From IMG/VR virus record IMGVR_UViG_2874968258_000011: a stretch of DNA of 31,126 nucleotides, one strand, 5' to 3'. This DNA is from a virus (Duplodnaviria; Heunggongvirae; Uroviricota; Caudoviricetes). Both the position numbers and the translations under genes were made by a program. The notes beneath the pieces are model-generated. The model was given only the letters and a program-made list of their open reading frames with translations, was not told the DNA's origin and searched no databases. Of the stretch, positions 9,732 through 28,493 are shown piece after piece (the first letter of the stretch is position 1; every line of letters starts with the position of its first letter).

Positions 9732-9908
9732 AGCCTCACCTCCGCAAATAACGGATGGCGTAGTTTTACACTGAGAAATGAAAGGGATTTGAAAAGAAAA
9801 AAACGCAAAAGCGGGCGAAACGATATATACAGTAAGGAAAGCACTGAGGTAGCCTGAGTTTAACGGACACTCCTTCCTAAAATAGAATGGCATCAGAAGG
9901 AGCTAATA

Positions 9909-10211
9909 ATGAGCAGAAAAACCCAACGTTACTCTAAAGAGTTCAAAGCCGAAGCTGTCAGAACGGTTCCTGAAAATCAACTTTCGATCAGTGAAGGCGC
10001 TTCCCGATTATCTCTTCCTGAAGGCACTTTAGGACAATGGGTTACCGCCGCCAGAAAAGGGCTCGGTACTCCTGGTTCCCGCACGGTGGCTGAACTGGAA
10101 TCTGAAATTCTGCAACTGCGTAAGGCGTTAAATGAAGCTCGCCTTGAGCGAGATATATTAAAAAAAGCAACAGCGTATTTTGCACAGGAGTCGCTGAAAA
10201 ATACGCGTTAA
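9909..10211 (+). CDS. IS600 OrfA (P variant at residue 21)
   Basis: 100-aa ORF. Confidence 0.9.
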   Translation: MSRKTQRYSKEFKAEAVRTVPENQLSISEGASRLSLPEGTLGQWVTAARKGLGTPGSRTVAELESEILQLRKALNEARLERDILKKATAYFAQESLKNTR

Positions 10212-10302
10212 TCGAACAATGGCGACAACAATTTCCCATTGAAGCGATGTGTCAGGTATTTGGTGTATCCAGGAGCGGTTATTACAACTGGGTATGAAGT
10301 GG

Positions 10303-11471
<1,169 letters not shown>

Positions 11472-12542
11472 TGGAGCACCTGTGTTGTTCTGAGGTGAGC
11501 ATATCACCTCTGTTCAGGTGGCCAAATTCAGTGTGCCACTTCAGTACAGCATGAACCCTCAGACAGAAAACAAAGTGATGAGCGGCTAAAACTGGAGATT
11601 AAGGTGGCACATATCCGCACTCGCGAAACATATGGAACCCGGCGGCTCCAGACGGAGCTGGCAGAGAATGGCATCATCGTTGGTCGTGACCGACTGGCAC
11701 GTCTTCGTAAGGAGCTAAGGCTACGCTGTAAGCAGAAACGCAAGTTCAGAGCGACTACGAACTCGAACCACAATCTGCCAGTTGCGCCAAATCTGCTGAA
11801 CCAGACGTTCGCTCCTACAGCACCAAATCAGGTCTGGGTGGCGGACCTGACGTATGTTGCCACACAGGAGGGATGGTTGTACCTCGCTGGCATCAAAGAT
11901 GTTTATACGTGCGAAATTGTCGGCTACGCCATGGGAGAGCGCATGACAAAAGAGCTGACAGGTAAAGCCCTGTTTATGGCGCTCAGGAGCCAGCGCCCAC
12001 CTGCCGGGCTAATCCACCACTCTGATCGAGGTTCACAGTACTGCGCATACGATTACCGGGTCATACAGGAGCAGTCTGGTCTGAAAACATCAATGTCGCG
12101 TAAAGGTAACTGTTACGACAACGCTCCGATGGAAAGCTTCTGGGGAACGCTGAAAAATGAGAGCCTGAGCCACTATCGTTTTAATAACCGGGATGAAGCC
12201 ATCTCAGTAATACGGGAATACATTGAGATTTTCTACAATCGTCAGCGTCGTCACTCTCGTCTGGGGAATATCTCCCCGGCAGCCTTCAGGGAAAAATATC
12301 ATCAGATGGCTGCTTAAAAAAAGAACAAATGGTAGTGTCCGCTATTGCCAGTACACCTCACACTCTATCCAACAAACCACCCACAGTTAATCGGAATAAA
12401 AGCAGAGTGCTTATGAATGATCGCACGCCCGAAGGTTAGTATTTCTGCACAGCAATTTTGCAAAAAAAGGCGATCATTCATAACTTAAACGTCTTTCAGT
12501 CACTCCGGGATTTCCCATCATCGCAGACTGAAAGACTCTGAC

Positions 12543-12617
<75 letters not shown>

Positions 12618-12620
12618 ATA

Positions 12621-12696
<76 letters not shown>

Positions 12697-12698
12697 GC

Positions 12699-12775
12699 TG
12701 GCCCACCACCGAGGACTCGAACCTCGCACCGTCAACTTAGAAGGTTGATGCTCTATCCGGATGAGCTAGTGGTGG
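12699..12775 (-). tRNA. tRNA-Arg (anticodon UCU); unusual C1:G72
   Basis: Acceptor CCACCAC/GTGGTGG, anticodon loop CTTCTAA, T-arm CGAGGTTCGAGTCCTCG, CCA. Confidence 0.75.
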
Positions 12776-12776
12776 T

Positions 12777-12853
12777 TGGTGGCCCTTGCTGGACTTGAAC
12801 CAGCGACCTGGCGATTATGAGTCGCTCGCTCTGACCAACTGAGCTAAAGGGCC
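12777..12853 (-). tRNA. tRNA with CAU anticodon, ileX-like (Ile2/lysidine type; elongator Met not excluded)
   Basis: GGCCCTTTAGCTCAG…GACTCATAATCGCC…GGTTCAAGTCCAGCAAGGGCCACCA. Confidence 0.75.
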
Positions 12854-12940
12854 GGAGGCAGAATAATAACCATATGTCATCACATCTGCAAACTCATCTG
12901 ACCACCAGCACGTTTAACGTCCTGTGCCGTTTTTCAGGTA

Positions 12941-12966
12941 TAAAAAAACCCGCATAAAGCGGGCTC
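12941..12966 (-). terminator. Intrinsic terminator between Q-like gene and tRNA cluster (candidate tR')
   Basis: Minus strand stem CCCGC, loop UUUAU, stem GCGGG, then U7. Confidence 0.55.
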
Positions 12967-13042
12967 TTTCAAATGTCCATGTCTGCTATTCGCCTCGCGG
13001 TACAGCTTTGCGAAGCGTACAAGAATTGAAGCAGTTTTTACG

Positions 13043-13597
13043 TCAAAAAGCAATAACTTTTTTCTCTATACCAAAAGCCATAACCATTGGTTTGTACAAA
13101 ATAAATTCTGCCACCTTTAGCCAATGCTCAATGCGTCTTTCACAGGTTCTTAAACTCCATTTCGGGTGTGCATCATTCAGCAGTTCAGCCATTTTGCGTT
13201 TGGTCATCCCCCGCCCCTCATACCGTTGCCGAAGGACGCTAATCAATCCTGGATGCTCTGCCAGCACCTCACTTATGACCCGATCAATACATAACGCCTC
13301 TGCATCAGTACAATGCGCCAGCCAGCTCTTTTGCTTACCGTTAATCATATCCCGCAAAAAAGCCTCAAGTTCAGACTTGTTCAGACCTGCTTTTTTCATC
13401 CTCCGGAGCGCCTCGTTAATTGCCGTTTTTGTCAGCTTTTTAGAGGTCAACATCAGGTTAAACATATTCCCCGTCTTACCGCCACCAATATACGACCAGC
13501 GCCCCCACATACGTAGTTTTCCCTGAATCCAGACACTTTCCAGCGTGGTGAGACGAAGGTGTTCTCCGCTTTTTCCTGTATTCGTTGGGTAAATCAT
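13043..13597 (-). CDS. Putative late antiterminator (Q-like)
   Basis: 184-aa ORF from internal ATG with AGGAGG RBS; positioned immediately upstream of terminator, tRNAs and lysis genes; family not verified. Confidence 0.5.
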   Translation of the reverse strand: MIYPTNTGKSGEHLRLTTLESVWIQGKLRMWGRWSYIGGGKTGNMFNLMLTSKKLTKTAINEALRRMKKAGLNKSELEAFLRDMINGKQKSWLAHCTDAEALCIDRVISEVLAEHPGLISVLRQRYEGRGMTKRKMAELLNDAHPKWSLRTCERRIEHWLKVAEFILYKPMVMAFGIEKKVIAF

Positions 13598-13884
13598 AAA
13601 TATCCCTCCTTTCTCCAGATTTCTTGTGTGCGAAAAACACCTTCTGCATGCATCAGGCGTAATTCTTCTTTGGTGTAATCGCTGGTTTTTACCCGCCCGT
13701 CGATTAAATCGTGGCACGAGCTACAGGCAATCGCTGCCTGCATATCGTGTGGCTTTATCGCTGTTCCGCACGTTCCCGCCAGTCGGTAATGCGCCAGCAC
13801 AGACGTTTCCGGATCGTGATTGCAGTAGCCAGGAATTCTGACGGTGCACATCTGCCCCCGCGCCGCTTTACGTAAATCCACCAT
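13594..13884 (-). CDS. ybcO: YbcO-like (DUF1364) putative nuclease
   Basis: 96-aa ORF MVDLRKAARGQMCTVRIPGYCN…ETSVLAH…; Cys-rich. Confidence 0.7.
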   Translation of the reverse strand: MVDLRKAARGQMCTVRIPGYCNHDPETSVLAHYRLAGTCGTAIKPHDMQAAIACSSCHDLIDGRVKTSDYTKEELRLMHAEGVFRTQEIWRKEGYL

Positions 13885-14483
13885 TACGCAAACTCCAGCA
13901 GCTGCGCGGCCACATTTTCGACTTGTTCCGGAGAGGAAAATTTACGGAACAGAATCCAGTTCCACAGCACATTCAGAACAGATTTATAAACCTGCTGAAA
14001 CTCGGTTTCGTCCATATTCGCAAAAGCGATGGATTTTGCCCGACGCCCGCGGCTACCGTCCGGATAAAAATGTTCGGTGTAAAATCCAGCCTGAATGGTT
14101 ACCCACTCGCGAAAAGCCTCAAACGACTTTAGCAATGCCGTATCCCGGGTTCTGCGTGTCGCAACTGTATTCAGATATTGCTCTGCGGCTTCGCTCAGAG
14201 CTGGCGTATGTTCCCGACCTACTGATTCGCACAGGTAATCAACGAAACCAGACAGCAGTTCTCGTTCGCGAGGCGTGATCGCCCCACCGACCGGAGTCCA
14301 GTAATCGAATCCCAGTTGCAGGAGTTTGAAAAAACGCTTGTGGAATGCGTAGTTACGCACACGCTTAAAGTCTGCGTGTATCCACTCACCTGTTTTGATT
14401 TGATGCAGAAAATCGCAACTCTCCGGCGTCGCCGGGAGAAGTAATCCGGAAGAGGTTTGTTTGATCAGTTGTATATGCGCCAT
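13884..14483 (-). CDS. Hypothetical prophage nin-region protein (DUF1367-like)
   Basis: 199-aa ORF with GGAGA RBS; translationally coupled to downstream ybcO-like gene. Confidence 0.55.
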   Translation of the reverse strand: MAHIQLIKQTSSGLLLPATPESCDFLHQIKTGEWIHADFKRVRNYAFHKRFFKLLQLGFDYWTPVGGAITPRERELLSGFVDYLCESVGREHTPALSEAAEQYLNTVATRRTRDTALLKSFEAFREWVTIQAGFYTEHFYPDGSRGRRAKSIAFANMDETEFQQVYKSVLNVLWNWILFRKFSSPEQVENVAAQLLEFA

Positions 14484-14554
14484 CGTAGTTCTCCGCTGGC
14501 GCAGTAGAATGGGTGTTCAGCCCGTTATGTAGTATACCAGAATTAATGCCAATA

Positions 14555-14767
14555 CTAACAGGATGCTCTGACTCGCAATTCATCCAGCAGTTTATCATTT
14601 CCCATAATGTCACTTACCCTCATCGGTAAAAAAATTGCCTTTCGACCATTACGATACATCATTGATTTTTTGGTTTCAGGGAAGTAATCCATTTCGACTA
14701 TAACTGACAGGTCATCACGACGTATGACTGCGTATTTACTACTAAATAGTTTCTTTATTTTTTCCAC
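14555..14767 (-). CDS. Hypothetical small ORF (GTG start), AT-rich
   Basis: 70-aa ORF only; no recognisable family. Confidence 0.2.
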   Translation of the reverse strand: MEKIKKLFSSKYAVIRRDDLSVIVEMDYFPETKKSMMYRNGRKAIFLPMRVSDIMGNDKLLDELRVRASC

Positions 14768-14873
14768 GATGCCTCCAGGTTTATAAGTACAAACGGTTAT
14801 ATCAACATAGAGACAAAAGGTGATGCTGCCAACTTACTGATTTAGTGTATGATGGTGTTTTTGAGGTGCTCCA

Positions 14874-15149
14874 GTGGCTTCTGTTTCTATCAGCTGTCCC
14901 TCCTGTTCAGCTACTGACGGGGTGGTGCGTAACGGCAAAAGCACTGCCGGACATCAGCGCTATCTCTGCTCTCACTGCCGTAAAACATGGCAACTGCAGT
15001 TCACTTACACCGCTTCCCAACCCGGTACGCACCAGAAAATCATTGATATGGCCATGAATGGCGTTGGATGCCGGGCAACTGCACGCATTATGGGCGTTGG
15101 CCTCAACACGATTTTACGTCACTTAAAAAACTCAGGCCGCAGTCGGTAA
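14874..15149 (+). CDS. insA: IS1 InsA
   Basis: 91-aa ORF. Confidence 0.9.
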
Positions 15150-15571
15150 CCTCGCGCATACAGCCGGGCAGTGACGTCATCGTCTGCGCGGAAATGGACG
15201 AACAGTGGGGCTATGTCGGGGCTAAATCGCGCCAGCGCTGGCTGTTTTACGCGTATGACAGTCTCCGGAAGACGGTTGTTGCGCACGTATTCGGTGAACG
15301 CACTATGGCGACGCTGGGGCGTCTTATGAGCCTGCTGTCACCCTTTGACGTGGTGATATGGATGACGGATGGCTGGCCGCTGTATGAATCCCGCCTGAAG
15401 GGAAAGCTGCACGTAATCAGCAAGCGATATACGCAGCGAATTGAGCGGCATAACCTGAATCTGAGGCAGCACCTGGCACGGCTGGGACGGAAGTCGCTGT
15501 CGTTCTCAAAATCGGTGGAGCTGCATGACAAAGTCATCGGGCATTATCTGAACATAAAACACTATCAATAA
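15068..15571 (+). CDS. insB: IS1 InsB
   Basis: 167-aa ORF. Confidence 0.9.
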
Positions 15572-15678
15572 GTTGGAGTCATTACCAAAAAAACCGCCGA
15601 AACGGGTTAAGTGCGGGTGCGTTGAGGATGCCTGACACATCAAAGGTGGCGGGAGATTACTCTCCCGCCTGGTCACTC

Positions 15679-15834
15679 TTACTCTCTAGATTCGTAGTCT
15701 ACGAAAACAGCGACCTCCGTCTGGCCGATTCGGATTCGTACCTCGCAGAGGTCTTTCCTCGTTACCAGTGCCGTCACAATGACGGTTAAACAGATGACGA
15801 TCAGGGCGATTAACATCGCCTTTTGCTGCTTCAT
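15679..15834 (-). CDS. hok: Hok/Gef-family type I toxin (51 aa)
   Basis: MKQQKAMLIALIVICLTVIVTALVTRKDLCEVRIRIGQTEVAVFVDYESRE closely resembles Gef/HokC; AGGAG RBS; ORF-track entry 15679..15891 is an upstream extension. Confidence 0.85.
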   Translation of the reverse strand: MKQQKAMLIALIVICLTVIVTALVTRKDLCEVRIRIGQTEVAVFVDYESRE

Positions 15835-16172
15835 AGCCTGCTTCTCCTTGCCTTTCGGCACGTAAGAGGCTAACCTACATTTGTGAGACATAGATTGGGC
15901 CTCAGATTAATGTTAAGCGTCTTGCAGGACGCGTAATGTTAACTGGGGCTTTTCTCTGTCTGCCTTACAGTGACATACCCGAGGCAGACAGCCTCAAGCA
16001 CCCGCAGCAATCTTACCGACACCGATAAGAAAACGCTATTTTTTATTGCCAGCACCATCTATCCAGGCTAGTTTATCTGCGTCAGAACGGCGCAATGCGC
16101 TCGCCTGAGATACGTTTACTTGCCATGGTAACAACAGGTAACGGCAATTGCTGTTTCTGTTTTGTTTCCTTC

Positions 16173-16203
16173 AAAAACCCCGGACCATCAATCCGGGGTT
16201 TTT
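16173..16203. terminator. Bidirectional intrinsic terminator (stem CCCCGGA/TCCGGGG, A5 on one side, T5 on the other)
   Basis: 7-bp GC-rich perfect stem flanked by A-run and T-run. Confidence 0.6.
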
Positions 16204-16208
16204 GTTTG

Positions 16209-16292
16209 TTAACCCCAACGGCAAATCGAATACACCACCAGCGCCACCGCCATCGCAATTCCTACCGTGGTGAATGCCTCAGGCCAGGTCAT
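16209..16292 (-). CDS. Candidate 27-aa hydrophobic peptide MTWPEAFTTVGIAMAVALVVYSICRWG
   Basis: ATG overlaps stop of DUF551-like gene (ATGA); AGGAGGTG located 6 nt upstream inside preceding gene; terminator immediately downstream; below ORF-track size cutoff. Confidence 0.4.
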   Translation of the reverse strand: MTWPEAFTTVGIAMAVALVVYSICRWG

Positions 16293-16654
16293 TGATTCAC
16301 CTCCTGCGGTGGTTCCGGTAGCGGCATCCAGTGAGTTGAGCTCTCTACTTCAACGCCGTCTTTGTCCACAAAAGCCATCTTATTCCCGCCACGAGTGGGG
16401 CAAAAAACCTTATCCCAGGAACCGGGGAATACATTCCCGAGATCATCGAGAAGAATCACATCGCAATATTCAGCAGGAACTGCATCACTACAGCTTATCC
16501 AGCCAGCCGGAGCTACCGGAGAGTTGCCAGCCTTACGCATGGCCATTTCCACGATTTCAACCATATCTCCTGGTGGAATTTTACAAAGTTGCCCAATACA
16601 TTTCTGCTGCCTGGCATATTCGAGAATGTGCTCCAGTTTGGTTCGATTAATCAT
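16289..16654 (-). CDS. DUF551-like prophage protein
   Basis: 121-aa ORF with C-terminal W…THWMPLPEPP-type motif. Confidence 0.55.
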   Translation of the reverse strand: MINRTKLEHILEYARQQKCIGQLCKIPPGDMVEIVEMAMRKAGNSPVAPAGWISCSDAVPAEYCDVILLDDLGNVFPGSWDKVFCPTRGGNKMAFVDKDGVEVESSTHWMPLPEPPQEVNQ

Positions 16655-17319
16655 TATTTATCTCCCTTAAGCATGGCAGCGCGGCAGGCGTTCCAGCCAT
16701 CAACATAATCAAACGTATTACTATCGTTTGGCCCGATTTCATCCGGCACTATCGGCTCTGGTTGGATAGTGACGTTGGCAAAGGCAGCACGCAAACCGGT
16801 TTTAATTTCTTCGATTTCATCAGAGCCAAGCGATGAATCTGACAGTGCGTGATGGAATGCGTAAGCCATGTCGTCGTTTACTGCAACCGGCACTGCCGGC
16901 GCTGCGTAAAGCGGTGTTATATCTGCCCGAAAATCACATGCTTTATGCAGTCGTACCCAACACTCAACTTCCGCTTTGTCAAAATATATAGCAGTGAACG
17001 TATTAGATTCCTGGTCAACTTGAGTAAACGTCACCTTCCACGCTACAGCTACGGCTTTCCATCCATCAGGTTGTCGCATTCGCGGGGCAGCATAAAGCTC
17101 ATGCATTCCATCAGGCAGCGAGTGACCCACATACTCACCGAACCCGTCAATACACATGCCCCCATCTTCAACAATGCATTCCGCTACAGGCTCTGCTTCC
17201 AGTGATGCCAGAGCGATAAGCGCCAGTTCACGAATTTCACCGCCGTCTATATCGTCAATATCATCGCGGCCAGAAATGTTAGCCAGCCATTGCAGTCGCT
17301 CTTTGGTAATAGTGGTCAT
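16654..17319 (-). CDS. Hypothetical prophage protein with duplicated LYAAP motif
   Basis: 221-aa acidic ORF; start overlaps HNH stop; stop overlaps DUF551 start. Confidence 0.55.
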   Translation of the reverse strand: MTTITKERLQWLANISGRDDIDDIDGGEIRELALIALASLEAEPVAECIVEDGGMCIDGFGEYVGHSLPDGMHELYAAPRMRQPDGWKAVAVAWKVTFTQVDQESNTFTAIYFDKAEVECWVRLHKACDFRADITPLYAAPAVPVAVNDDMAYAFHHALSDSSLGSDEIEEIKTGLRAAFANVTIQPEPIVPDEIGPNDSNTFDYVDGWNACRAAMLKGDK

Positions 17320-17681
17320 GCCGTAGCCCCTTCTTGATATTTTTCAAACCAGAACACAACCGGGTCAGATTTCATTTCAACCAATCCCATACGAACCAGC
17401 GCTTTGCCTTTCCCGGACGCAAGGAATTCACGACGACCATCACTGATAATTCGTCGATAATCTTCCAGGCTACTGCAATGCTTGTGCAGATTGCATGGGT
17501 GGCATGCTGGTACCATGTTGGATATATCGTCACGTTCCTGGTGAAGCATATTTCCATCAAAACGAATGACCGGTTTTACATGGTCTGCATGCCACTTTTC
17601 GCCAAGTTCGCAGCCGCAATAAGCGCAGCGACCACCGAACTTCATGCGCAGTTCTGCACGTTGTTTTTTCGTCAGTGCCAT
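17316..17681 (-). CDS. HNH endonuclease
   Basis: CAYCGCEL…WHADHVKP…CHPCNLHK zinc-finger/HNH motif; start at internal ATG with AAGGA RBS. Confidence 0.75.
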   Translation of the reverse strand: MALTKKQRAELRMKFGGRCAYCGCELGEKWHADHVKPVIRFDGNMLHQERDDISNMVPACHPCNLHKHCSSLEDYRRIISDGRREFLASGKGKALVRMGLVEMKSDPVVFWFEKYQEGATA

Positions 17682-17682
17682 A

Positions 17683-17901
17683 TCAGCTTTCCTTATACGG
17701 ATTAATTTTATTGTGCAGTGTGTTGAATGACGCCCATACCACGTCGTTATACAATTCAATAACTGGCTCAATTATTTTTCCGATTATCCAGACAAAAATT
17801 AGCGGGGATATCGGTGTCATCAACACGATAAACAGAATGAGAAACAGGAATTCTGTTGTTCTACTCTTTCGCGGATATTTTTTTCTAAATAATGTAACCA
17901 T
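17683..17901 (-). CDS. Hypothetical small membrane protein
   Basis: 72-aa ORF with hydrophobic segment FLFLILFIVLMTPISPLIFVWIIG; ends 2 nt before HNH start. Confidence 0.35.
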   Translation of the reverse strand: MVTLFRKKYPRKSRTTEFLFLILFIVLMTPISPLIFVWIIGKIIEPVIELYNDVVWASFNTLHNKINPYKES

Positions 17902-17993
17902 TCATTACCGCCCTTTCGAGCGGTCTCCTGATGATTTGAGGGTGCAGAAATCCCTCCGGTTAAGGATTAAATTTTTAACAGTGCTAAATTTAA

Positions 17994-18334
17994 TTATTCA
18001 GTTCTGGATTTTGTCGCCCTGCGTATCCGCGCTTTCGCGTTACGCTCAATCTGTATCAGCTTTTCTATATTTCTCCGCCTTTCCTGTTCCTCCTGGCGCA
18101 ATAGCCTTACATCATCTGCCAGTCTGGTTTCTCTTTTTGCCACAGAGAGCATCCAGTCAAACGGCTCCACAACCGCACCGCAGATTTTACAGCGGACCTG
18201 ACGCTCTTTTTCGTCAACCCGGACAGAGGCGTGATGGCAATATGGTCTTTCCGATGGTTCATAAAGAAAATTAACCTGATTACGTGGGTCATCCTCTTTT
18301 ACCGGAAATAAAACGATATTGCTTAACTCATCTT
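17994..18334 (-). pseudogene. 5'-truncated gene remnant (Cys/His then charged helical tail), cut by IS1 copy C
   Basis: Open frame …RPYCHHASVRVDEKERQVRCKICGAVVEPFDWMLSVAKRETRLADDVRLLRQEEQERRRN… continues without start codon into IS1 end. Confidence 0.35.
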
Positions 18335-18389
18335 GGTGATGCTGCCAACTTACTGATTTAGTGTATGATGGTGTTTTTGAGGTGCTCCA

Positions 18390-18665
18390 GTGGCTTCTGT
18401 TTCTATCAGCTGTCCCTCCTGTTCAGCTACTGACGGGGTGGTGCGTAACGGCAAAAGCACTGCCGGACATCAGCGCTATCTCTGCTCTCACTGCCGTAAA
18501 ACATGGCAACTGCAGTTCACTTACACCGCTTCTCAACCCGGTACGCACCAGAAAATCATTGATATGGCCATGAATGGCGTTGGATGCCGGGCAACTGCAC
18601 GCATTATGGGCGTTGGCCTCAACACGATTTTACGTCACTTAAAAAACTCAGGCCGCAGTCGGTAA
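18390..18665 (+). CDS. insA: IS1 InsA
   Basis: 91-aa ORF. Confidence 0.9.
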
Positions 18666-19087
18666 CCTCGCGCATACAGCCGGGCAGTGACGTCATCGTC
18701 TGCGCGGAAATGGACGAACAGTGGGGCTATGTCGGGGCTAAATCGCGCCAGCGCTGGCTGTTTTACGCGTATGACAGTCTCCGGAAGACGGTTGTTGCGC
18801 ACGTATTCGGTGAACGCACTATGGCGACGCTGGGGCGTCTTATGAGCCTGCTGTCACCCTTTGACGTGGTGATATGGATGACGGATGGCTGGCCGCTGTA
18901 TGAATCCCGCCTGAAGGGAAAGCTGCACGTAATCAGCAAGCGATATACGCAGCGAATTGAGCGGCATAACCTGAATCTGAGGCAGCACCTGGCACGGCTG
19001 GGACGGAAGTCGCTGTCGTTCTCAAAATCGGTGGAGCTGCATGACAAAGTCATCGGGCATTATCTGAACATAAAACACTATCAATAA
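18584..19087 (+). CDS. insB: IS1 InsB
   Basis: 167-aa ORF. Confidence 0.9.
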
Positions 19088-19164
19088 GTTGGAGTCATTA
19101 TGAGGTAGCCTGAGTTTAACGGACACTCCTTCCTGAAATAGAATGGCATCAGAAGGAGCTAATA

Positions 19165-19467
19165 ATGAGCAGAAAAACCCAACGTTACTCTAAAGAGTTC
19201 AAAGCCGAAGCTGTCAGAACGGTTCCTGAAAATCAACTTTCGATCAGTGAAGGCGCTTCCCGATTATCTCTTCCTGAAGGCACTTTAGGACAATGGGTTA
19301 CCGCCGCCAGAAAAGGGCTCGGTACTCCTGGTTCCCGCACGGTGGCTGAACTGGAATCTGAAATTCTGCAACTGCGTAAGGCGTTAAATGAAGCTCGCCT
19401 TGAGCGAGATATATTAAAAAAAGCAACAGCGTATTTTGCACAGGAGTCGCTGAAAAATACGCGTTAA
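19165..19467 (+). CDS. IS600 OrfA (P variant)
   Basis: 100-aa ORF. Confidence 0.9.
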   Translation: MSRKTQRYSKEFKAEAVRTVPENQLSISEGASRLSLPEGTLGQWVTAARKGLGTPGSRTVAELESEILQLRKALNEARLERDILKKATAYFAQESLKNTR

Positions 19468-19502
19468 TCGAACAATGGCGACAACAATTTCCCATTGAAG
19501 CG

Positions 19503-20321
19503 ATGTGTCAGGTATTTGGTGTATCCAGGAGCGGTTATTACAACTGGGTACAGCATGAACCCTCAGACAGAAAACAAAGTGATGAGCGGCTAAAACTGGA
19601 GATTAAGGTGGCACATATCCGCACTCGCGAAACATATGGAACCCGGCGGCTCCAGACGGAGCTGGCAGAGAATGGCATCATCGTTGGTCGTGACCGACTG
19701 GCACGTCTTCGTAAGGAGCTAAGGCTACGCTGTAAGCAGAAACGCAAGTTCAGAGCGACTACGAACTCGAACCACAATCTGCCAGTTGCGCCAAATCTGC
19801 TGAACCAGACGTTCGCTCCTACAGCACCAAATCAGGTCTGGGTGGCGGACCTGACGTATGTTGCCACACAGGAGGGATGGTTGTACCTCGCTGGCATCAA
19901 AGATGTTTATACGTGCGAAATTGTCGGCTACGCCATGGGAGAGCGCATGACAAAAGAGCTGACAGGTAAAGCCCTGTTTATGGCGCTCAGGAGCCAGCGC
20001 CCACCTGCCGGGCTAATCCACCACTCTGATCGAGGTTCACAGTACTGCGCATACGATTACCGGGTCATACAGGAGCAGTCTGGTCTGAAAACATCAATGT
20101 CGCGTAAAGGTAACTGTTACGACAACGCTCCGATGGAAAGCTTCTGGGGAACGCTGAAAAATGAGAGCCTGAGCCACTATCGTTTTAATAACCGGGATGA
20201 AGCCATCTCAGTAATACGGGAATACATTGAGATTTTCTACAATCGTCAGCGTCGTCACTCTCGTCTGGGGAATATCTCCCCGGCAGCCTTCAGGGAAAAA
20301 TATCATCAGATGGCTGCTTAA
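19503..20321 (+). CDS. IS600 OrfB
   Basis: 272-aa ORF. Confidence 0.9.
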   Translation: MCQVFGVSRSGYYNWVQHEPSDRKQSDERLKLEIKVAHIRTRETYGTRRLQTELAENGIIVGRDRLARLRKELRLRCKQKRKFRATTNSNHNLPVAPNLLNQTFAPTAPNQVWVADLTYVATQEGWLYLAGIKDVYTCEIVGYAMGERMTKELTGKALFMALRSQRPPAGLIHHSDRGSQYCAYDYRVIQEQSGLKTSMSRKGNCYDNAPMESFWGTLKNESLSHYRFNNRDEAISVIREYIEIFYNRQRRHSRLGNISPAAFREKYHQMAA

Positions 20322-20364
20322 AAAAAGAACAAATGGTAGTGTCCGCTATTGCCAGTACACCTCA

Positions 20365-27647: not shown

Positions 27648-28493
27648 ATGTTGAATGTAGCTATTGAAAACCAGAACGGGTGGAATTATAGTGCACCTGC
27701 ACCTCATAAAACGGGTGCCGGGATTGCTACCCCGAAGTCATTCACGGCGCATAACCGCGCTCAGGCGGTTTTTTTATGCGTAATGCACAGCCACATTCAA
27801 ATTATGGTGGGGCGTGCGGGGCAGTCGCAAGACTGGCCGGGTTCCGTGATGACCGGTTGTAGCAACCCTGTACGTCTCACCACCCATGAGATTGCTACCT
27901 CCGGTGGTGAGTTAATCAAATTCATCGCGGAGGCTGCCATCATGGCTACTACCCTTTCTCACCCTTGTGTAACCGTAGAAAACGGTCGCGCTGTCACTAC
28001 GTCTGTTGCGGTTGCAGAGTTCTTCCACAAACGACACGACAATGTGTTACGTGCCATCGCAAATATTGAATGCTCAGATAAATTTACTGCCCTCAATTTT
28101 GAAGCGAGCGAATACACCGACTCAATCGGGCGCAAACTCCCAATGTACCAAATCACCAAAAACGGCTTCGTTTTCCTGGTTATGGGCTTCACTGGCAAAA
28201 AAGCCGCTGCATTCAAAGAAGCCTACATTGCTGAGTTCGACCGCATGGAGGCCGAACTGCGCCAGAATAACACCCCACCTGCTGACAAGATGATTCCGGG
28301 TGATGGTCGCACTCTGGTTGTTCACTTCGACAAATTCGGCAATGTCGAATTCACCGAAACCGTTCCTGATGGCGCACTGGTCTGTACCCTGGAGACTTTC
28401 CGGTTTTATCTGGAAAAACAGGGATGGACTCTTGTTAACCGGGGCGCAATTAAAAATATGACTGTGGAACAATTACTCAAAATTCATTGTTGA
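27648..28493 (+). CDS. Rha-family phage regulatory protein / antirepressor-like; alternative internal start at 27942
   Basis: Rha-like segment VTVENGRAVTTSVAVAEFFHKRHDNVLRAI begins near residue 105; both 27648 and 27942 ATGs have RBS. Confidence 0.5.
   Translation: MLNVAIENQNGWNYSAPAPHKTGAGIATPKSFTAHNRAQAVFLCVMHSHIQIMVGRAGQSQDWPGSVMTGCSNPVRLTTHEIATSGGELIKFIAEAAIMATTLSHPCVTVENGRAVTTSVAVAEFFHKRHDNVLRAIANIECSDKFTALNFEASEYTDSIGRKLPMYQITKNGFVFLVMGFTGKKAAAFKEAYIAEFDRMEAELRQNNTPPADKMIPGDGRTLVVHFDKFGNVEFTETVPDGALVCTLETFRFYLEKQGWTLVNRGAIKNMTVEQLLKIHC

Follow-up and report, generated by a model that had tools for sequence, protein, structure and literature searches.

A chromosomal toxin gene with an insertion sequence directly behind it raises an obvious question: does the element alter the control of the toxin, or does it merely lie next to it? 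The locus considered here is a hok/gef-like gene in a window of 31,126 nucleotides (the whole stretch of DNA that was analysed), which, judging by its sequence, belongs to a decayed and defective lambdoid prophage of Shigella sonnei. A copy of IS1 stands immediately 3′ of the gene, and the initial annotation proposed that it could alter the fold-back control or processing exerted through the hok 3′ UTR. Our analysis does not bear this out. The locus is very probably a complete hok/mok/sok type I toxin–antitoxin cassette of the hokW/hokD subgroup of lambdoid prophages, to which the IS1 is a bystander. The range initially given for the locus (15587–16050) does take in the whole cassette, from a −35-like hexamer at 16033–16038 to a T-tract at 15587–15593.

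The hok and mok reading frames and their promoter

The Hok/Gef ORF (15834..15679, minus strand) encodes 51 aa followed by a TAA stop codon (MKQQKAMLIALIVICLTVIVTALVTRKDLCEVRIRIGQTEVAVFVDYESRE). The protein matches the Pfam family HOK_GEF over the full length of the profile (PF01848: 77.3 bits against a cutoff of 22, E value 6.7e-22, profile positions 1–42 of 42), and its ATG lies 9 nt after a Shine–Dalgarno (SD) sequence, AGGAG (15848..15844). The gene had initially been described as an intact hok/gef-like ORF with an AGGAG ribosome-binding site, its coding sequence spared by the IS1 immediately downstream, and both statements are borne out.

An overlapping ORF corresponding to mok (15891..15679, minus strand, 70 codons) appears in the ORF list in the same frame as hok, with a stop codon common to both. 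It has an SD of its own, GAGG (15903..15900), 9 nt upstream of its ATG at 15891, so that the whole element spans 15679..15903. The layout corresponds to that annotated for mokW/hokW of phage 933W and is what one expects of mok, an upstream frame with a separate SD on whose translation that of hok depends; the coupling is putative here.

The hok promoter is known to be weak. A sigma-70 scan of positions 15400–16300 at a threshold of 9/12 called no promoter for either hok or sok, so the positions given for both rest on conservation and on comparison with phage 933W and plasmid R1. Conservation was assessed in an alignment of 62 distinct related cassettes taken from E. coli prophages, phage genomes and IMG/VR contigs. 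The candidate promoter of the hok mRNA (16010..16038, minus strand) comprises a −35-like TAGCGT (16038..16033), a 17-nt spacer and a −10 TAAGAT (16015..16010). Conservation across the 62 cassettes sets in at this promoter; the T/A/A/T bases of the −10 hexamer are 98 % conserved and the T and G of the −35 hexamer 92–95 %, and the −10 is collinear with the TATGAT of R1 (PMC9841398).

A predicted Sok antisense RNA

On the plus strand, a putative Sok RNA gene occupies 15848..15953. Its candidate promoter consists of a −35 TTGCCT (15848–15853), a 17-nt spacer and a −10 TAACCT (15871–15876), and the RNA itself would extend over approximately 15883–15953 (71 nt), with ends set by homology to the annotated 71-nt sokW of 933W. 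The promoter stretch is 98–100 % conserved among the 62 cassettes and falls where a Sok-like antisense promoter had been anticipated, namely on the plus strand near 15835–15900. The Rfam model 'sok' (RF01794) matches 16003..15829 with 118 bits (gathering score 59), and the predicted Sok RNA folds into a 14-nt single-stranded 5′ tail, a long hairpin and a U-tail (−29.2 kcal/mol, z=−5.3). The arrangement fits a predicted cis-encoded antisense RNA lying over the mok translation-initiation region and transcribed from a promoter of its own. The initial annotation had allowed for the Sok and Mok elements being absent and the locus consequently inert; both are present.

Control elements and predicted folds of the hok mRNA

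The elements expected at both ends of a hok mRNA were found on the minus strand. The 5′ end is placed at 16003, where the RF01794 match begins, and with it the tac element (15992..16003, GGGUGCUUGAGG), which is nearly invariant among relatives. The upstream complementary box, ucb (15943..15951, AAGCCCCAG), which serves as an anti-SD of mok, was assigned from its partners in the predicted folds. The fold-back inhibitory element, fbi (15615..15627, CCUCAACGCACCC), forms a helix with mRNA nt 1–12 in the minimum free energy (MFE) structure; like tac, it is 92–100 % conserved, and it ends ~66 nt past the hok stop, likewise in the R1-type locus.

Between the hok stop and fbi lies a GC-rich stem-loop (15648..15669; arms 15648–15656 and 15661–15669). 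The 9-bp stem noted in the initial annotation is real and perfect (GGCGGGAGA/UCUCCCGCC), although it lies 10–31 nt beyond the stop rather than at 18–39 nt. It is far more stable than expected by chance (−19.7 kcal/mol, z=−6.5; equalled by 0 of 200 shuffles). In an alignment of 44 distinct 3′ UTRs, 98 % of cells retain pairing in the stem, three of the nine pairs show compensatory GC/AU changes, and the register is specific, 92 % of cells being paired against 47–57 % when the partners are slid. In R1, breaking a C–G pair in the matching stem abolishes the truncated (Tr-hok) mRNA (PMC9841398). Given the collinearity with R1 and the matching folds, we interpret the stem, by analogy, as the protective terminal hairpin of the truncated, processed hok mRNA.

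The full-length RNA was modelled as 16003..15587 (417 nt). In its MFE fold, tac (16003–15992) and fbi (15627–15615) form a 12-bp helix with one bulge, the ucb box GCCCCAG is paired with the mok SD region CUGAGGC, and the 9-bp stem is present. When the RNA is shortened to end at 15647, 15644 or 15640, the MFE structure flips in all three cases to a tac(1–8)/ucb(53–59) pairing (G1–C59 to U8–A53), and the mok SD UGAGGC moves to dcb (UGAGGC/GUCUCA). These folds match the closed-to-open switch described for R1 hok (PMC9841398). An R1-type locus from an IncFII plasmid is collinear with the window element by element, and its full-length fold is likewise closed by tac and fbi. Covariation between tac and fbi was sought within the subgroup, where the elements are almost invariant and leave little variation to score; the pairing proposed for the window is based on energy prediction and analogy with R1.

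In the working model, a weak promoter would give rise to a hok mRNA of ~417 nt (16003 to ~15587), in which pairing of the 5′ tac with the 3′ fbi would let ucb keep the mok SD locked and the RNA translationally silent. Slow 3′ exonucleolytic trimming would then strip fbi and halt at the 9-bp GC stem, whereupon the trimmed RNA would refold, tac pairing with ucb and the mok SD becoming exposed. Two fates would follow, either binding by Sok with decay of the duplex, or translation of mok and hok and action of the toxin at the membrane. The model presumes that the promoters fire, that transcription terminates at the U-tract and that Hok carrying its T36I substitution is toxic.

Conservation of the cassette and the T36I variant

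With the hok ATG as reference, the conserved unit shared by the 62 distinct cassettes is sharply bounded, reaching from about −183 to +248, after which conservation falls to background level. Homology among cassettes from unrelated contexts stops at the terminator T-tract, and loci of the 933W type diverge already just after fbi. Set against the ≥85 % consensus drawn from 56 distinct relatives, the window deviates at only five positions: 15977, a base of the apical loop in the 5′ hairpin; 15728, giving T36I; 15706, which is synonymous; 15643, a spacer base of the 3′ UTR; and 15593, the last G of the terminator stem. The last two are found in an IS1-free relative as well. All five spare tac, ucb, both SDs, both start codons, the sok promoter, the 3′ stem and fbi.

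T36I is rare and is the sole oddity in the Hok protein. Isoleucine occupies this position in 4 of 79 relatives from viral contigs (three of these four being the S. sonnei allele itself), and the substitution lowers the Pfam score by ~4 bits (77.3 versus 81.1). Both observations could be taken to mean that the cassette is an inert relic that has lost the ability to kill, either through attenuation of the toxin by T36I or through a failure of this chromosomal/prophage subgroup to become activated once transcription ceases; its persistence would then reflect nothing more than the young age of the S. sonnei clone. The defective, IS-split state of the prophage makes induction-driven expression like that of Sp5 (PMC8621323) unlikely, and the chromosomal hokA, hokB and hokC gave no post-segregational killing according to a passage of a preprint that cites Pedersen & Gerdes 1999 (10.1101/2025.08.07.668861). 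We nevertheless consider an inert relic unlikely. Residue 36 is variable across the family, being Asp in R1 Hok, and it lies outside the seven residues that are conserved in >80 % of Hok peptides; overexpressed Hok stayed toxic even after alanine substitution of those seven, and 42 of 45 diverse Hok homologs assayed were toxic (preprint 10.1101/2025.08.07.668861). By analogy with these proteins, Hok(T36I) would therefore be expected to be active. All regulatory elements are, moreover, at consensus, which would be unexpected for a decaying locus.

A separate observation concerns the only Cys that Hok encodes (C30). The second conserved Cys position is occupied by a Tyr codon, TAC, followed by G (TACG; codon at 15694–15696, minus strand), and in the full-length MFE fold this TACG sits in a 7-nt loop, CUACGAA (15698..15692), closed by UAGA/UCUA. 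In hokB, and at Cys46 in hokC/D/E, a TadA A-to-I editing motif has been reported (preprint 10.1101/2025.08.07.668861). The Y47 codon of the window Hok appears to fit this motif and may, by analogy, be recoded to Cys.

The prophage and the segment between two IS1 copies

S. sonnei assemblies, Ss046 (CP000038.1) among them, encode the exact Hok protein, and the IS1/hok junction is fixed among the S. sonnei places that were examined, being identical in 6/6. Five of these are collinear with window positions 18834..12679 at ~99.9 % identity, and the remaining one (CP151349.1, L010) is collinear only to ~15384. In the latter, a Mu-like element with HTH_35 and Mu transposase genes (L010, ~3451 onward) interrupts IS1 copy B ~200 bp from its hok-proximal end; the hok cassette and the junction are unchanged. 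Contigs of 2–5 kb make up 915 of the 1166 index blocks that contain the exact Hok protein, which fits short-read assemblies breaking at the flanking IS1.

The cassette is located in the nin region, between genes for a DUF551 protein and a NinB-like protein. Its neighbours are DUF551, the NinB-like DUF1367 protein, YbcO, a Q-like antiterminator, a tRNA cluster and an Rz lysis gene. The IS load of the window comprises three copies of IS1, six copies of a 1264-bp IS3-family element (which we take to be IS600), and IS21-, IS630- and other IS3-family elements. IS1 copies B (14819–15586) and C (18335–~19100) form direct repeats around a 2.75-kb segment (15587–18334) with hok/sok, DUF551, a 221-aa ORF, an HNH protein and DUF4014. 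The layout resembles a Tn9-like composite IS1 transposon carrying hok, but this was rejected as a transposition product, as the segment lies, together with both outer flanks, in the same order as in the IS-free prophage of E. coli FDAARGOS_944. Upstream of hok, IS1 copy C and the IS3-family element abutting it (18335–20364) would sever hok from the early operon of the prophage, leaving it drivable by its own promoter only, unlike the induction-linked hokW of Sp5.

Enclosed by direct IS1 repeats, the 2.75-kb segment should be easily lost through IS1 × IS1 recombination, yet it is kept in every S. sonnei assembly and place examined. This suggests a possible role for the cassette as an addiction module for its own chromosomal segment (15587–18334), with Hok killing the segregants that have deleted it; we regard such a role as quite doubtful. 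If the cassette does prevent IS1-mediated loss of the segment, it would represent a natural case of a toxin–antitoxin system slowing genome reduction in an IS-expanded pathogen, an idea that already exists for other toxin–antitoxin systems. In a weaker variant, read-through of the degenerate hok terminator (described below) may produce hok transcripts antisense to insB of IS1.

Several other features of the prophage were noted. The IRR of IS1 copy C is present without its last two bases (…GGAGTCATTA|TGAGGTAGCC, 19098–19102) and is abutted by the end of the IS3-family element at 19100–20364, one IS having inserted into, or beside, the tip of the other at 19098–19102. A 1249-bp insert (10295–11543) that encodes another IS3-family transposase pair (HTH_Tnp_1 and rve) divides one of the 1264-bp IS3-family copies into two parts (9844–10294 and 11544–12360). 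The two parts share 3 bases of the intact copy, as would be expected of a 3-bp target duplication, and with the insert this identifies 9844–12360 as a nested IS. Four phage tRNA genes (Met-CAT, Arg-TCT, Thr-TGT and Gly-TCC; 12543–12853, minus strand) lie just downstream of the Q-like antiterminator gene (13043–13717), as is the arrangement in Stx-type lambdoid phages. On the plus strand, Rfam matches to isrK (64.8 bits) and C4 antisense RNA (79 bits) stand in tandem at 27699–27887, within the 5′ part of a listed Rha/Ash-family ORF (27648–28493). The region is a P1/P7-style c4-ant immunity module, and the Rha/Ash-family ORF probably starts downstream of these RNAs.

IS1 copy B and its junction with hok

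IS1 copy B (14819..15586, 768 bp, plus strand) could be delimited exactly by its IRL and IRR, and agrees with the standard form of IS1, a 768-bp element with terminal inverted repeats of ~23 bp and insA/insB′ frames. It is identical to the other copies in the window and 100 % complementary over 771 nt to the inverted copy A (1113–1880), and InsA, HTH_Tnp_IS1 and DDE_Tnp_IS1 domains are found on the same element in S. sonnei records. Its IRR end points at hok, the two being convergent. The gap between the hok stop and IS1 is 91 nt, the first base of IS1 being the 92nd past the stop, in agreement with the 92 nt stated initially.

Copy B has no target-site duplication, its flanks GAGACAAAA and AAAAAAACC being different, and copy A has a clean 9-bp duplication, CTTCTGTGG, on both sides. 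The missing duplication is no argument against the element being IS1. An inversion between copies A and B was rejected as its cause, copy A having retained its own duplication.

An IS1-free version of this prophage segment is present in E. coli FDAARGOS_944, 99.6 % identical to the window over 713 bp toward hok and 98.3 % identical on the opposite side. In this genome, fbi is followed by ACTTAACCCGTTTCGGCGG, 8 T, a 135-bp AT-rich spacer and a 70-aa ORF, and the uninterrupted order of hok, spacer and ORF is kept in 137 complete E. coli genomes. The window agrees with this sequence as far as 7 T, one of the eight being lost, and the IRR of IS1 follows at once; the match to FDAARGOS_944 picks up beyond IS1 only 135 bp later (L001 3849/3850). 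Copy B thus stands in place of ~135 bp (L001 3714–3848). As the spacer is kept in the IS1-free relative and the flanks of copy B are unlike, it appears that IS1 came together with, or before, a ~135-bp deletion, one end of which would be the last T of the hok terminator tract. The absent duplication and the missing 135 bp point to an IS1-associated adjacent deletion or to IS1 × IS1 recombination. We infer that the insertion and deletion took the upstream region of the next phage ORF (14767..14555), and copy B, as a polar element, would separate hok from the NinB-like and Q genes.

No exact match to the IS1/hok junction turned up among GTDB species-representative genomes. Neither window IS1 junction was found in 5,426 complete E. 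coli genomes, nor was a progenitor with a target duplication. This hok 3′ end and IS1 were found in one matched place in only three of the 5,426 genomes (in PI7, the IS1 is ~340 nt downstream), and the hok 3′ end is therefore not a marked IS1 hotspot. IS1 favours AT-rich targets such as the spacer past the terminator.

IS1 and the hok 3′ end

As the homology of the cassette ends at the T-tract that IS1 abuts, all known hok control elements are outside IS1, the terminator hairpin by 8 nt and fbi by at least 29 nt; with the 3′ stem, these elements span 8–82 nt from its end. The proposal that IS1 alters fold-back control or processing is consequently unsupported: tac, fbi, ucb, the mok SD and the 3′ stem are intact, and the predicted folds are R1-like. 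The native 3′ boundary, by alignment with FDAARGOS_944 and the 62 cassettes, is the T-tract itself, and a native end short of IS1 with intact fold-back elements is what the initial annotation had named as evidence against its own proposal. The 9-bp stem, as the known protective hairpin, is neither made nor affected by IS1. In our model IS1 would be a bystander that abuts the last U of the terminator, and the ~135-bp loss would have taken only the AT-rich spacer before the next phage gene.

The terminator occupies 15587..15605 (minus strand) in a degenerate form, with a 4-bp hairpin, CCGU-UUCG-GCGG (15605..15594), and a 7-U tract (15593..15587). Relatives have ACCCGC-UUCG-GCGGGU followed by Us, and a terminator scan flags the Rac-type locus L005. 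In the window lineage, the hairpin has a stability of −3.8 kcal/mol versus −11.8 kcal/mol for the consensus; it is no better than shuffled sequence (z=−0.28), and the same scan made no call on it. Two substitutions (C>U and G>U) weaken it. Both are also present in the IS1-free FDAARGOS_944, suggesting that the weak hairpin was inherited, is older than IS1 and was not caused by it. Some read-through of the transcript into IS1 is plausible, and with a hairpin no better than shuffled sequence the true 3′ end of the hok mRNA could fall inside IS1.

IS1 might still change hok 3′-end formation or processing, through more read-through into the new downstream DNA, longer tails and a shift in the timing of fbi removal, and convergent insA/insB transcription could add antisense RNA across hok. 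The convergent orientation, the U-tract abutted by IS1 and shortened by its last U (8 to 7), the weak and unflagged hairpin, and the long transcript of K-12 gef, which ends in an IS186 inserted in its 3′ UTR (PMC3562002), would all agree with such an effect, but we judge it very improbable, given that fbi, the 3′ stem and the whole hairpin lie outside IS1, that the weak hairpin of FDAARGOS_944 means any read-through predates IS1, that 3′ exonuclease trimming would erase an extra tail down to the tac/fbi helix, that nothing resembling a promoter faces outward from the IS1 end (a hybrid promoter reading out of the IRR, TTGGAG plus 17 nt, was rejected for want of a usable −10), and that hokW of the 933W type works experimentally without this hairpin.

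On the preferred reading, a complete cassette with IS1 as a bystander, both the element and its location are of familiar types. The finding matters little beyond annotation, where its consequence is that the hok/sok locus of the S. sonnei prophage should be treated as potentially live, and not as IS-inactivated like K-12 gef/hokC.

Comparison with known hok/sok systems

Other hok genes are paired with insertion sequences, further pairs being hokA/IS150 and hokE/IS186. The closest parallel to the junction itself is hokD of E. coli 2018-11-3CC (NZ_AP021895.1), where an IS1 in the same orientation, with its IRR toward hok, lies a few bases past the terminator tract. That junction is ~10 nt further out (…GGCGAGTTTATTTTATC|GGTAATG), the hok allele has 91.5 % identity to that of the window and the genomic context is another one; the two insertions are independent events. 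The IS1 of 2018-11-3CC adjoins a truncated recombinase gene (L006 2600–2625), which suggests another IS1-associated rearrangement beside a hok locus.

The initial annotation had referred to insertion sequences at chromosomal hok loci, and a precedent is provided by K-12 gef/hokC, likewise a chromosomal hok with an IS just 3′ of an intact toxin ORF. According to the passage of PMC3562002 that cites Pedersen & Gerdes 1999, an IS186 lies inside the 3′ UTR of this gene and is thought to disrupt fbi and normal processing; a transcript of ~644 nt ending in IS186 is described (PMC3562002). The window differs in that IS1 lies beyond fbi and the terminator hairpin, so that the transcript unit is spared.

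The hok/sok (parB) locus of R1 is plasmid-borne, and post-segregational killing has been demonstrated there. Its elements occur in the same order as in the window, namely −10, tac, ucb, mok, sok promoter, hok SD, hok, GC stem and fbi, and its predicted closed and open folds match those of the window. The GC stem of R1 lies 10–30 nt past the stop and its fbi ends ~66 nt past it, the window being alike in both (PMC9841398). At the sequence level the two are strongly diverged, with no DNA match at the megablast level; R1 Hok has 52 aa, and the Sok target hairpin of the window is longer than that of R1.

The window cassette belongs to the same subgroup as hokW-sokW (mokW) of Stx2 phage 933W and Sakai prophage Sp5 (92.7 % DNA identity over 405 bp), and the Hok proteins are identical at 48 of 51 residues. 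The loci are alike in having mok in the hok frame, a 71-nt Sok covering the mok start and a prophage location. The toxicity of HokW and the antitoxin activity of SokW, which depends on RNase III and Hfq, have been shown experimentally, establishing a type I toxin–antitoxin system, and induction-linked expression of hokW has been reported in Sp5 (PMC8621323). The 933W hokW is situated near the far end of the phage, whereas the window cassette lies in the nin region, and loci of the 933W type are without the UUCG terminator hairpin that the window has. Unlike hokW-sokW, the window cassette combines the T36I substitution with an adjoining IS1.
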